A stretch of 64,000 nucleotides of DNA from Escherichia coli (GTDB lineage Bacteria > Pseudomonadota > Gammaproteobacteria > Enterobacterales > Enterobacteriaceae): the NCBI RefSeq assembly GCF_003790525.1, contig NZ_CP033635.1, one strand, 5' to 3'. How positions within the stretch are numbered: position 1 is the first letter of the stretch; each line of letters begins with the position of its first letter. Below the pieces are notes generated by a model. It did not search any database and was not told the DNA's origin. It saw nothing but the letters and a program-made list of their open reading frames with translations. Made by a program: the position numbers and the translations under genes. Below are positions 14,324-50,272 of this stretch, piece by piece.

Positions 14324-16009
14324 GTGAATATAAACGTCGCCGAATTGTTAAATGGGAATTACATTCTGTTATTATTTGTGGTCCTCGCGCTTGGGCTATG
14401 TCTCGGGAAATTACGACTTGGTTCGATCCAACTGGGTAATTCCATTGGCGTTTTAGTCGTATCGCTGTTATTAGGCCAACAACATTTCAGCATTAACACC
14501 GACGCGCTTAATCTTGGCTTTATGCTGTTTATTTTCTGCGTCGGGGTCGAAGCCGGACCGAACTTTTTTTCCATTTTTTTTCGCGATGGGAAAAATTACC
14601 TAATGTTAGCACTGGTGATGGTTGGCAGTGCGCTGGTCATCGCCTTAGGGTTAGGTAAGCTGTTTGGCTGGGATATTGGCCTGACGGCCGGTATGTTAGC
14701 AGGCTCTATGACGTCAACACCGGTTTTGGTCGGTGCTGGCGATACACTGCGTCATTCCGGCATGGAAAGCAGGCAGCTCTCACTGGCACTGGATAATCTG
14801 AGCCTCGGGTATGCCTTAACCTATTTAATCGGTCTGGTGAGTTTGATTGTTGGTGCGCGTTACTTGCCGAAATTGCAGCATCAGGACTTACAGACCAGCG
14901 CCCAGCAAATCGCCCGCGAACGTGGCCTGGACACAGATGCCAACCGTAAGGTTTATTTGCCGGTGATCCGCGCCTACCGCGTCGGCCCGGAGCTGGTGGC
15001 CTGGACCGACGGCAAAAATCTGCGTGAACTGGGTATTTATCGACAAACCGGCTGCTACATTGAACGTATTCGACGTAACGGGATTCTGGCAAATCCAGAC
15101 GGTGATGCCGTGCTACAAATGGGCGATGAAATAGCGTTGGTAGGCTATCCCGACGCCCACGCCCGACTCGATCCCAGTTTCCGTAATGGCAAAGAAGTTT
15201 TCGATCGTGACCTTCTCGACATGCGTATCGTCACTGAAGAAGTGGTCGTTAAAAACCATAACGCTGTAGGCAAACGTCTCGCACAACTGAAGTTGACCGA
15301 TCACGGTTGCTTCCTTAACCGCGTCATTCGTAGCCAGATTGAGATGCCGATTGATGACAACGTCGTGCTTAACAAAGGTGACGTTTTACAAGTCAGCGGC
15401 GATGCCCGTCGCGTAAAAACCATCGCCGATCGCATCGGCTTTATCTCGATTCACAGCCAGGTCACTGACTTGCTGGCATTCTGCGCCTTCTTTGTGATTG
15501 GGCTGATGATCGGGATGATCACCTTCCAGTTCAGCACATTCAGTTTCGGCATGGGGAACGCTGCCGGGTTGTTATTCGCCGGAATTATGCTGGGCTTTAT
15601 GCGTGCTAACCACCCGACCTTCGGTTACATTCCGCAAGGTGCATTAAGCATGGTGAAAGAGTTCGGCTTGATGGTGTTTATGGCAGGCGTTGGTCTGAGC
15701 GCCGGTAGCGGTATTAATAACGGCCTGGGCGCGATTGGCGGTCAAATGTTGATTGCCGGATTGATTGTCAGTCTGGTGCCAGTGGTTATCTGCTTCTTGT
15801 TCGGTGCTTATGTATTGCGAATGAACCGCGCACTGTTGTTCGGCGCAATGATGGGCGCACGCACCTGCGCGCCGGCAATGGAGATCATCAGTGATACAGC
15901 TCGCAGTAACATCCCGGCGCTGGGCTATGCGGGCACCTATGCAATCGCCAACGTCCTGCTGACGCTAGCAGGGACAATCATCGTCATGGTATGGCCAGGA
16001 TTAGGATAA
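14324..16009 (+). CDS. ybjL: Putative transporter YbjL (AAE family, TrkA-C domains)
   Basis: 561 aa with N- and C-terminal membrane halves around a soluble middle. Confidence 0.88.
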
Positions 16010-16121
16010 AACTGAAGTTGCCCTGAAAATGAAATTTTTTTGCACAACCGCAGAACTTTTCCGCAGGGCATCAGTCTTAATTAGTGCCACTGCTTTTCTT
16101 TGATGTCCCCATTTTGTGGAG

Positions 16122-16164
16122 CCCATCAACCCCGCCATTTCGGTTCAAGGTTGGTGGGTTTTTT
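16122..16164 (+). terminator. Hairpin plus T-run about 110 nt downstream of ybjL
   Basis: cccatcaacc...ggttggtggg stem followed by tttttt. Confidence 0.5.
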
Positions 16165-16183
16165 GTTGCCTGAAATTTATCTA

Positions 16184-16720
16184 CTACCCTGCAACCCTCT
16201 CAACCATCCTCAAAATCTCCTCGCGCGATAGCGGCTTACGGTCGGTGACAAAATGCAGCGTCATCCCCTCAATAAACGCATCAAGCGCGCGGGCGGTTCC
16301 GGGTTCAAACCATTGTTCGAGCGTTTGCTGACTGCGCTGCATCCAGTTTTGCATTACCGTTTTTAATAGCGGTTTTCGGCTAGCCAGCGCGTAGAGCTGG
16401 TACATCAGCTCCATGTTATCCGGCGTTGCAACCTGTGAGCTGTAGATCATATCGGTGATAGCCTGGCATGCGCCCGGAGCATCACTAACATCGCTAAAAA
16501 ATGCCTGATATTGCCGGGACATGATCTCAGTAAAACGGCTGAACGCCTCCAGCAACAACTCATCAATTCCTGAAAAATAGTAAGTCATCGATCCCAACGG
16601 TACCCCGGCAAGGGTAGCAATTTTGCGGTGCGTAACAGCATGTATTCCGTAAAGTTTCACCGCCTCCAGCGTGGCCTGGATAATTTTTTCTCGCCGTTGT
16701 GGATCGTTAGCGCGACGCAT
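16184..16720 (-). CDS. rcdA: TetR-family transcriptional regulator RcdA
   Basis: Start refined to [13 protein letters not shown] (178 aa); N-terminal TetR HTH. Confidence 0.85.
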
Positions 16721-27658: not shown

Positions 27659-28045
27659 ATGGGTGTGTATAAGGCAAGACGATTCAGCCAAAGCACGAAA
27701 AAACTTGGTATTCACGATAAAGTTCTCATGGCTGCCGCTGAAGAAGTGATGCAGGGCATATGGGAGGCTGATTTAGGTAGCGGTGTCATCAAAAAACGTT
27801 TACCCCTCCAACAAGGAAAGAGTGGTGGAGCCAGAACAATTATCTTTTTTAAATCAGCAAATCATGTGTTTTTTTATGATGGTTGGTCCAAGAGTGGTCT
27901 AAGCAGTAAAGGAACCAAAGAAATCGAAGATGATGAACTGGCGGCCTACAAAAAAATGGCAAATGCATTTCTGGCCTTTAGCAATAAGCAAATAGAGGAT
28001 TTGATCGAAACTGGCTTTTTGATTGAGGTGAAAAATGAGCGATAA
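27659..28045 (+). CDS. Type II toxin, HigB-2 / RelE-like family
   Basis: 128 aa; GKSGGARTIIFF motif resembling the GxGGxRxI core of HigB-2-type toxins; toxin-first order with an 11-nt overlap onto an HTH gene; absent from this position in K-12. Confidence 0.7.
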   Translation: MGVYKARRFSQSTKKLGIHDKVLMAAAEEVMQGIWEADLGSGVIKKRLPLQQGKSGGARTIIFFKSANHVFFYDGWSKSGLSSKGTKEIEDDELAAYKKMANAFLAFSNKQIEDLIETGFLIEVKNER

Positions 28046-28364
28046 ATTACAAATGATGCTGGAAGATGCAAAGGAACTGAATGCACTGGGCCTGATGTCT
28101 GATAGTGAAGTTGATGCCATTGCCGTCATGGTCAAAGCTCGTGAAGTCAGCGCCCGTATAGCCAAAGTCAAATCAATGACGGGTGAAGAGATCAAAGCCA
28201 TCCGCACCCGATACGGCATGTCACAATCCGTGCTGGCACATACAATGGGAATGTCAAAAGAAAGTGTCTCGAAATGGGAACGTAATGAAATAAAACCGAG
28301 CGGCCCGGCATTACGTATTTTGAATACATTGGCAATAAAAGGGCCGGAAGTTTTTGCAAAGTAA
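28035..28364 (+). CDS. HTH (XRE-type) antitoxin, HigA-2-like
   Basis: 109 aa; C-terminal HTH (GMSQSVLAHTMGMSKESVSKWE) after an N-terminal extension; translationally coupled to the toxin. Confidence 0.7.
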   Translation: MSDKLQMMLEDAKELNALGLMSDSEVDAIAVMVKAREVSARIAKVKSMTGEEIKAIRTRYGMSQSVLAHTMGMSKESVSKWERNEIKPSGPALRILNTLAIKGPEVFAK

Positions 28365-47300: not shown

Positions 47301-47382
47301 GAGTTAATGGAAGTGAATTGATGTGGGATTAAGAAAATCGATTCGACGTTACTCAGATTGCTGACAAATGCGCTTTGTTAAT

Positions 47383-47481
47383 GCCTGATGCGGCGTTAAC
47401 GCCTTATCCGGCCTACAAAGTCCTGCAGATTCAATATATTGCAGGTACTGCGTAGGCCTGATAAGCATAGCGCATCAGGCA
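47383..47481. repeat. Pair of inverted REP elements (BIME-like)
   Basis: gcctgatgcggcgttaacgccttatccggcctaca and the inverted copy gtaggcctgataagcatagcgcatcaggc. Confidence 0.75.
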
Positions 47482-47540
47482 ATCTTGCGTTTGTCATCAG
47501 CCGCCGTCACCCCGACAGTATCGGGCTGACGGATAATAAC

Positions 47541-49133
47541 TTACTCGATCCCTTTACTACGCAGATAATCTTCGTAATTACCGCTAAAGTCGATCACGCG
47601 TTCCGGGGTGATTTCCAGAATACGGGTCGCCAGGGAGCTTACGAACTCACGGTCGTGTGAAACAAAGATCAGCGTGCCCTGATACAGTTCCAGCGCCATG
47701 TTCAGCGACTCAATAGATTCCATATCCAGGTGGTTGGTCGGTTCGTCCATGATCAGAATGTTCGGCTTCTGCATCATTAACTTACCAAACAGCATCCGCC
47801 CTTTCTCCCCACCGGAAAGCACTTTCGCTGGCTTTTTGATATCGTCCTGGCTGAACAGCAAACGACCGAGAATGCTGCGTACCGCCTGCTCGTCATCGCC
47901 TTCCTGCTTCCACTGGCTCATCCATTCGAACACGGTCAGATCATTTTCGAACTCATATTCATGGTCCTGGGCGTAGTAACCAATGCGCGCGTTCTCAGAC
48001 CATTTTACGGTGCCGCTGTCCGGTTGCAGATCGCCCACCAGCGTTTTCAGCAGCGTTGATTTACCGACGCCGTTGGTACCCAGTACCGCCAGTTTTTCAC
48101 CGACTTCCAGCAGCAGGTTGAGATTTTTAAACAGTGGACCGTTATCAAACCCTTTGGTCAGACCTTCCACTTCCAGCGCGTTACGGAACAGTTTCTTATC
48201 CTGCTCAAAACGGATGAACGGGTTCTGACGGCTGGAAGCTTTCACCTCTTCCAGTTTGATTTTATCGATCTGGCGCGCACGCGAAGTTGCCTGGCGAGAT
48301 TTCGAGGCGTTGGCGCTAAAGCGGCTAACGAAAGATTGCAGCTCGGCAATCTGCGCTTTCTTCTTGGCATTATCAGCCAGCAGACGTTCACGCGCCTGGG
48401 TCGCCGCCGTCATGTACTCATCGTAGTTACCTGGATAAACGCGCAGCTCGCCGTAATCCAGATCCGCCATATGGGTACAAACCATGTTAAGGAAGTGACG
48501 GTCGTGCGAGATGATGATCATGGTGCTGTCACGCTCGTTCAGCACCTGTTCCAGCCAACGAATGGTGTCGATGTCGAGGTTGTTGGTCGGTTCGTCGAGC
48601 AGGAGAATGTCCGGATCAGCAAACAGCGCCTGCGCCAGCAGCACACGCAGCTTCCAGCCAGGAGCAACTTCACTCATCGGGCCGTAGTGCTGTTCCACTG
48701 GAATTCCCACGCCAAGCAACAGTTCACCGGCGCGAGCTTCCGCAGAGTAACCGTCCATTTCGCCGTATTTTACTTCCAGATCGGCCACTTTATAACCGTC
48801 TTCTTCGCTCATTTCCGGCAAAGCATAGATACGGTCGCGCTCCTGCTTCACTTCCCACAACTCTTTATGCCCCATGATCACCGTATCCAGCACGGTGAAC
48901 TCTTCAAAGGCAAACTGATCCTGACGCAATTTACCAATGCGCTCGTTGGGATCGAGGGAAACGTTACCCAGCGTCGGCTCTAAGTCGCCGCCGAGGATCT
49001 TCATAAAGGTGGATTTACCACTACCGTTCGCGCCAATCAGGCCGTAACGGTTGCCGCCGCCAAACTTGACGGAAATGTTTTCAAACAACGGCTTACTGCC
49101 GAACTGCATGGTGACGTTACTGGAAACTAACAC
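47541..49133 (-). CDS. ybiT: ABC-F family ATPase
   Basis: 530 aa; two ABC cassettes, no membrane domain. Confidence 0.9.
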
Positions 49134-49351
49134 AGGCGTATCCTGAAAAGAGATATGACAAACCGCGTATTATGCCATAAGTCTGAAAGAAGATCCCGTC
49201 CCCCGCTTAAGGTCTACACTCTTCCCAAAGGCAAAAAATGTGATTTCGTACACATCTGATTTCACTGTGAGCTGGAATGAACTTATAATGCGCTTCCAAT
49301 ACTCTAATATTCTCAACCCAATGGCCTGCCAGGCACAAAATCTCGCTTAAC

Positions 49352-50272
49352 ATGAATATGAAATTGAAAACATTATTCGCAGCGGCCTTCGCTGTTGTCG
49401 GCTTTTGCAGTACCGCCTCTGCGGTAACTTATCCTCTGCCAACCGACGGGAGTCGCCTGGTTGGTCAGAATCAGGTGATCACCATTCCTGAAGGTAACAC
49501 TCAGCCGCTGGAGTATTTTGCCGCCGAGTACCAGATGGGGCTTTCCAATATGATGGAAGCGAACCCGGGTGTGGATACCTTCCTGCCGAAAGGCGGTACT
49601 GTACTGAACATTCCGCAGCAGCTGATCCTGCCGGATACCGTTCATGAAGGCATCGTCATTAACAGTGCAGAGATGCGTCTGTATTACTATCCGAAAGGGA
49701 CCAACACCGTTATCGTGCTGCCGATCGGCATTGGTCAGTTAGGCAAAGATACGCCTATCAACTGGACCACCAAAGTTGAGCGTAAGAAAGCAGGCCCGAC
49801 CTGGACGCCGACCGCCAAAATGCACGCAGAGTACCGCGCTGCGGGCGAACCGCTTCCGGCTGTCGTTCCGGCAGGTCCGGATAACCCGATGGGGCTGTAT
49901 GCACTCTACATCGGTCGCCTGTACGCTATCCATGGCACCAACGCCAACTTCGGTATCGGCCTGCGTGTAAGTCATGGTTGTGTGCGTCTGCGTAACGAAG
50001 ACATAAAATTCCTGTTCGAGAAAGTACCGGTCGGTACCCGCGTACAGTTTATTGATGAGCCGGTAAAAGCGACCACCGAGCCAGACGGCAGCCGTTATAT
50101 TGAAGTCCATAACCCGCTGTCTACCACCGAAGCCCAGTTTGAAGGTCAGGAAATTGTGCCAATTACCCTGACCAAGAGCGTGCAGACAGTAACTGGTCAG
50201 CCTGATGTGGATCAGGTCGTGCTGGATGAAGCGATCAAAAATCGTTCCGGGATGCCGGTTCGTCTGAATTAA
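49352..50272 (+). CDS. ldtB: L,D-transpeptidase (YbiS)
   Basis: 306 aa; signal peptide; YkuD-domain catalytic motif (HGT...SHGCVR). Confidence 0.9.

Follow-up and report, generated by a model that had tools for sequence, protein, structure and literature searches.

RybB and its sigma-E promoter in the ybjL-rcdA intergenic region of an Escherichia coli genome

The 174-nt gap between ybjL and rcdA (positions 16010-16183) in the Escherichia coli sequence studied here, a stretch of 64,000 nucleotides which we refer to as the window, is almost certainly the rybB locus, with a 79-nt primary transcript that is made from its own sigma-E promoter. RybB is a textbook regulator of outer-membrane homeostasis whose description dates from 2001 and whose characterisation began in 2006. 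The gene found here is therefore already known and nothing new is learned from its presence at this locus. The identity of RybB and the presence and conservation of its promoter, seed and terminator are established in this analysis, and we found no evidence in it that contradicts this reading. The sigma-E dependence, the Hfq binding and the omp targets are presumed to hold in this strain by analogy with published experiments in K-12 and Salmonella.

The genes in this part of the window are ordered grxA, ybjM, ybjL, rcdA, ybjJ and ybjI. A stretch of 401 nt around the gap is 100% identical to several complete E. coli genomes, and the RefSeq annotation of one of them gives the synteny ybjM-ybjL-[rybB]-rcdA-ybjJ. 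The stop codon of ybjL (TAA) occupies 16007-16009 and 20 nt separate the stop codon of the convergent rcdA from the 3' end of RybB. Table 1 lists the features of the region.

Table 1. Features of the ybjL-rcdA region in window coordinates, with the basis of each assignment.
Feature	Position	Strand	Basis
ybjL CDS, aspartate:alanine antiporter family	14324-16009	+	ORF list; RefSeq annotation of 100%-identical genome
Left arm of inverted repeat, TGCCCTG, ybjL-proximal spacer	16019-16025	+	Sequence; pairing not conserved across 118 species
A/T-rich tract (AAAATGAAATTTTTTT...), about -60 to -40, UP-element position	16026-16046	+	Recurs in all aligned species
Sigma-E -35 element GAACTTT (-33 to -27)	16053-16059	+	Columns >= 90% to 100% conserved, 118 sequences
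Right arm of inverted repeat, CAGGGCA, in -35/-10 spacer of rybB promoter	16064-16070	+	Sequence
Sigma-E -10 element GTCTTA (-12 to -7)	16074-16079	+	G, T and C invariant, following A's nearly so, 118 sequences
rybB gene, 79-nt RybB small RNA	16086-16164	+	Rfam RF00110; K-12 ncRNA rybB b4417
5' seed CACUGCUUUU, pairs with omp mRNAs	16088-16097	+	Invariant in 118 sequences, but 16090 onward fixed by search pattern
Rho-independent terminator hairpin of RybB, 12-bp stem and inner 3-bp helix	16120-16160	+	Folds; covariation
Attachment-site core of P2-like (Felsduovirus) prophages, 27 nt	16154-16180		Core duplicated at prophage junctions, E. coli B derivative
T6 run, 3' U-tail of RybB	16159-16164	+	Sequence; nearly invariant across species
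rcdA (ybjK), convergent downstream neighbour of rybB	16184-16720	-	RefSeq and K-12 annotation

When the whole window was searched against Rfam, the RybB family (RF00110) matched at 16089-16167 on the plus strand with a score of 104.1 bits (gathering threshold 40; E = 2.5e-20), and the match spans the full model, i.e. positions 1-79 of 79. In K-12 MG1655 the ncRNA rybB (b4417) is annotated at 887979-888057 between rcdA and ybjL. This sequence aligns exactly to the rybB interval of Table 1 with one mismatch, so that 78 of the 79 nt are identical. In the literature rybB lies in the gap from ybjL to ybjK/rcdA and has the orientation of ybjL (PMC1804206), and the annotation of K-12 and of the 100%-identical genome shows this arrangement. 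The K-12 gene and the gene in the window thus agree in locus, strand relative to ybjL, length, promoter, seed and terminator. They differ by the mismatch, an A-to-G change at 16154, and by four substitutions just past the U-run (16168-16176).

The mismatch is located in the 3' arm of the terminator stem, where K-12 carries A and the window carries G. As G converts a U-A pair of the terminator to U-G, the pairing is kept by wobble. Of 5420 E. coli records 738 carry the window allele. In the alignment of 118 sequences described below, no sequence other than the window has G at this position. The 79-nt RybB sequence itself is present in 5418 of 5426 complete E. coli genomes. The same genome search gave seven matches to it on records classed as plasmids. 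In PGAP-annotated E. coli genomes there is no feature under the rybB match, and the gene is named only in the curated K-12 record. With rybB unannotated in RefSeq/PGAP records the spacer looks empty in most gene tables.

The spacer contains both elements of a sigma-E promoter at the distance from the known 5' end that is expected for RybB. Transcription starts at G16086, with 6 bases between the -10 element and +1. The stretch AGAACTTTT at 16052-16060 is followed by a 13-nt gap up to the GTCTTA hexamer. The published sigma-E consensus is GGAACTTTT for the -35 and GTCAAA for the -10 element (PMC1804206); the hexamer in the window matches the latter at 4 of 6 positions and is identical in K-12, whose rybB promoter was experimentally strong and is one of the strongest promoters in the sigma-E regulon (PMC4102768). 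We searched both strands of the 64-kb window for the motif [AG]GAACTT-N15-17-TCNNA and obtained a single site, the rybB promoter, which lies 44-70 nt past the ybjL stop and hence within the intergenic spacer. The A/T-rich tract upstream of the -35 element may, judging from its composition and position, act as a promoter UP element, and UP elements of sigma-E promoters, that of rybB included, have been studied (PMC3326320). In a SELEX experiment with the RpoE holoenzyme the rybB-ybjL spacer gave the strongest peak in the genome (55-fold; PMC5493296).

The transcript ends in a Rho-independent terminator which begins 111 nt past the ybjL stop. Its 12-bp stem is formed by AGCCCAUCAACC (16120-16131) and GGUUGGUGGGUU (16149-16160) and encloses an inner 3-bp helix (16134-16136/16142-16144), and the stem runs into the T6 run. 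The initial annotation had noted a hairpin with T6 about 110 nt downstream of ybjL, and both are present. Conservation of this structure clearly exceeds chance. In the alignment of 118 sequences 99.1% of the cells of the hairpin are paired, and seven of its pairs are changed on both sides, for example CCCAUCAACC/GGUUGAUGGG against CCCGAUAGUC/GACUAUCGGG. None of 500 shuffles reached its covariation score, and the pairing fell to 12-60% when the 3' partners were slid as a control.

A simple promoter and terminator scan found neither end of the gene. The sigma-E promoter was missed because the scan models only sigma-70, and the terminator because the 17-nt apical region of its hairpin exceeds the loop limit of 8. 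The scan is uninformative for the rybB locus. Between the ybjL stop and 16120 it reported no other terminator-like site, and since there is none it is plausible from the sequence that ybjL transcripts may end at the RybB terminator too. We also considered the hairpin as a canonical bidirectional terminator serving the convergent rcdA and rejected this, as the stem, read on the minus strand, leads into CTCCACAAAA and not into a T-run.

To compare the locus across species we searched for exact occurrences of a 23-nt pattern taken from the 5' part of RybB and retrieved 120 loci from other species. We aligned 117 of them with the window (118 sequences in total), from 85 nt upstream to 95 nt downstream of the start of the pattern. 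The aligned species belong to the Enterobacterales and include Escherichia, Salmonella, Klebsiella, Enterobacter, Serratia, Yersinia, Xenorhabdus, Providencia and Sodalis. The GAACTTT element, GTC..AA, the +1 region, the first ~30 nt of the RNA and the U-run are invariant or at least 90% conserved, where the invariance of the 23 nt of the search pattern (16090-16112) is built in and carries no weight. The sequence further upstream of the promoter could not be aligned and is wholly different between genus groups. Promoter and RNA are conserved where the upstream sequence differs, so the two travel together, whatever lies upstream. The seed is unpaired in the predicted fold, and the conserved RybB seed has been published as CRCUGCUUUU (PMC6694218).

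These observations bear on the origin of the RNA. The initial annotation had proposed a discrete, structured 3' UTR of ybjL from which a small RNA of 100-150 nt could be derived; in this account read-through from ybjL reaches the hairpin and processing releases the small RNA. A discrete structured RNA that ends at the terminator does exist in the interval, though its origin and its size are not those proposed. The position of the hairpin speaks for the proposal, as it lies on the same strand as ybjL at a distance of 111 nt with no other terminator-like site in between, so that ybjL mRNAs may end there, and the 174-nt gap folds better than its shuffles (z = -2.9). Against it stand the conserved sigma-E promoter, which lies in the spacer and is correctly spaced from the known 5' end, and the conservation of promoter and RybB in genera with quite different upstream sequence. 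RybB is a primary transcript with its +1 at G16086, and the known species measures 79-80 nt. The strongest argument against a supply from ybjL read-through is that RybB is lost without sigma-E: it was undetectable in a Salmonella rpoE mutant (PMC1804206). We found no literature that links ybjL read-through to RybB; the two are mentioned together only in the RpoE SELEX paper (PMC5493296). An origin from the ybjL 3' UTR is consequently very improbable. The wrong origin was assigned because the sigma-E promoter went unrecognised, and the case provides a calibration point in which a reading of the raw sequence caught the terminator-ended structured RNA and misplaced its source. The chance that the interval instead encodes a small protein is close to nil. 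The program-made list of open reading frames contains a 45-aa ORF at 16001-16138 on the minus strand and a 43-aa ORF starting with TTG at 16100-16231 on the plus strand. We rejected these small ORFs on both strands on the pattern of conservation, which is that of an RNA, with an invariant block that shows no third-position wobble and with compensating changes in the stem pairs. Furthermore, indels of 1-2 nt in the apical region of the hairpin would shift either frame, and neither ORF is annotated in K-12 or RefSeq.

A second structure in the spacer, the gccctg...cagggc inverted repeat which had been reported to precede the hairpin, is present as GCCCTG (16020-16025) and CAGGGC (16064-16069). 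The complementarity continues to 7 bp, and ACTGA (16011-16015) and TCAGT (16071-16075) lie on its outer sides. As its left arm lies 10 nt past the ybjL stop and its right arm falls in the -35/-10 spacer, the repeat is outside the RybB RNA and upstream of its 5' end, and not part of the small RNA. Together with the outer ACTGA/TCAGT helix it could be a functional element, either a DNA palindrome to which a regulator of the rybB promoter binds or an RNA stem-loop at the ybjL 3' end, in the latter case a stabiliser or a weak terminator that keeps read-through away from the rybB promoter. We consider such a role unlikely. The 76 nt at 16010-16085 do fold at -22.9 kcal/mol (z = -3.9), and the stem is kept in four other Escherichia lineages. 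One of these is unchanged (L104); the other three (L006, L039 and L071) have one A-to-G change, and pairing is kept only as G-U, which fits an RNA rather than a DNA element. For Salmonella a similar long-range architecture with other sequence is predicted (z = -2.6 for L113 and z = -1.5 for L035). Across the 118 sequences, on the other hand, the pairing of the repeat is at background (42% of cells, compared to 40% in shuffles and 34-39% when slid). Folds of the 76 nt upstream of +1 computed for each species have a median z of only -0.5, with 14% of the species below -2. On the background-level pairing and this median we rejected the repeat as a conserved structure. Much of the inner structure is the promoter A-tract pairing with its T-tracts, a composition effect that dinucleotide shuffles do not control. 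No U-run lies 3' of the stem. Dinucleotide shuffles of the 174 nt also produce a GC-rich 6-mer repeat with a loop of at most 40 nt in 24% of cases, and two overlapping repeats of this kind, corresponding to the 7-bp version, in 7%. Taken alone the inverted repeat provides weak evidence. Its arms lie on either side of the -35 region, and most likely it is an incidental feature or one specific to the lineage; a function confined to Escherichia and Salmonella, such as a stem at the ybjL 3' end or insulation of the promoter, is possible but unlikely. In its specific form, in which an RNA stem of 16011-16025 with 16064-16075 would cap ybjL read-through, set the ybjL 3' end and insulate the rybB promoter in Escherichia, and would be altered in Salmonella, the proposal is doubtful at best.

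For the RybB locus, the published work suggests the following course of events in this strain. Under envelope stress RNA polymerase with sigma-E would bind the intergenic promoter through the A/T tract and the two elements GAACTTT and GTCTTA. Transcription would start at G16086 and end at the hairpin and U-run (16120-16164), which yields the 79-nt RybB. Hfq would occupy the 3' portion of the RNA and the single-stranded seed would pair with the mRNAs of major outer-membrane proteins. This pairing would speed the decay of the omp mRNAs, reduce the load of unfolded porins and in this way exert negative feedback on sigma-E. In the literature RybB is ~80 nt long, accumulates in stationary phase, is induced within minutes by RpoE expression or polymyxin B and is bound by Hfq with an apparent Kd of ~100 nM (PMC1804206). 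The Hfq-binding domain has been assigned to its 3' part (PMC6694218), and RybB and MicA together target 31 mRNAs, the major porins included (PMC4102768).

MicA and MicL, the other sigma-E-dependent Hfq-binding small RNAs of E. coli, follow the same scheme in which a sigma-E promoter yields a short Hfq-binding RNA that represses abundant envelope proteins (PMC4102768), but their sequences and targets are unrelated to those of RybB. MicL is transcribed from inside the cutC CDS and then processed, and is thus embedded in a 3' UTR, whereas RybB starts in an intergenic spacer. With the small RNAs derived from 3' UTRs (such as MicL-S or those of the CpxQ type) RybB shares its location directly 3' of a gene on the same strand and possibly the terminator of that gene. 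It differs from this class, which is defined by a 5' end generated by processing or by a promoter within the upstream CDS: the promoter of RybB is in the intergenic spacer, its 5' end is the transcription start, and its presence does not depend on conservation of the upstream gene.

The 3' end of rybB also serves as a prophage integration hotspot, and about one in five complete E. coli genomes is occupied at this site. The 27-nt attachment core overlaps the last 11 nt of RybB and the site is empty in the window. Approximately 1196 of 5422 E. coli genomes (~22%) are interrupted at a point corresponding to window position ~16180. In an E. coli B derivative (L004) the interruption is a 24-kb P2-like prophage that extends from ogr to the integrase. 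The core ATGGGTTTTTTGTT..CT.AAA.TTAT is found at both ends of this prophage (L004:270-400 and L004:24330-24490) and once in the window. Two further strains have the same ogr/gpD prophage end at rybB, and in the record of a Klebsiella P2-like phage the matching stretch bears the annotation attR. Hotspot #29 of the E. coli pan-genome is formed by Felsduovirus prophages that have integrated into rybB (PMC10121019), and a Klebsiella prophage was located 'precisely within' rybB (PMC4048246). The core overlaps the 3' end of an RNA gene, as do attachment sites at tRNA and tmRNA genes, and as at those sites the prophage carries a replacement copy which leaves the gene intact after integration (PMC10121019, PMC4048246).

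The attachment site also contains the four substitutions noted above. At 16168-16176 the sequence is GCCTGAAAT in the window and ATCTAAAAC in K-12. The window form recurs in many other genera and where the E. coli B prophage joins the chromosome on the rybB side, and the K-12 form matches the rcdA-side junction of the same prophage. The difference between the alleles could stem from a past integration and excision that exchanged core alleles. The prophage in the E. coli B derivative additionally encodes a retron St85-family reverse transcriptase with an effector (L004:13062-15110), which fits reports of defence systems in prophages at this hotspot.

Some further observations were made elsewhere in the window. 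Rfam returned a match to the ES036 (CssrF) small RNA at 47417-47459 on the plus strand, with 41.6 bits against a threshold of 37.6 and two non-canonical pairs; it is situated where ybiU meets a gene for a LacI-family regulator. This regulator and an MFS transporter follow ybiU at 47369-50000, a position at which K-12 is not known to have them. Between rimO and dgcI, at 27659-28364 on the plus strand, lies a gene for a RelE/ParE toxin together with an HTH partner; in the E. coli B derivative the corresponding spacer lacks this pair.
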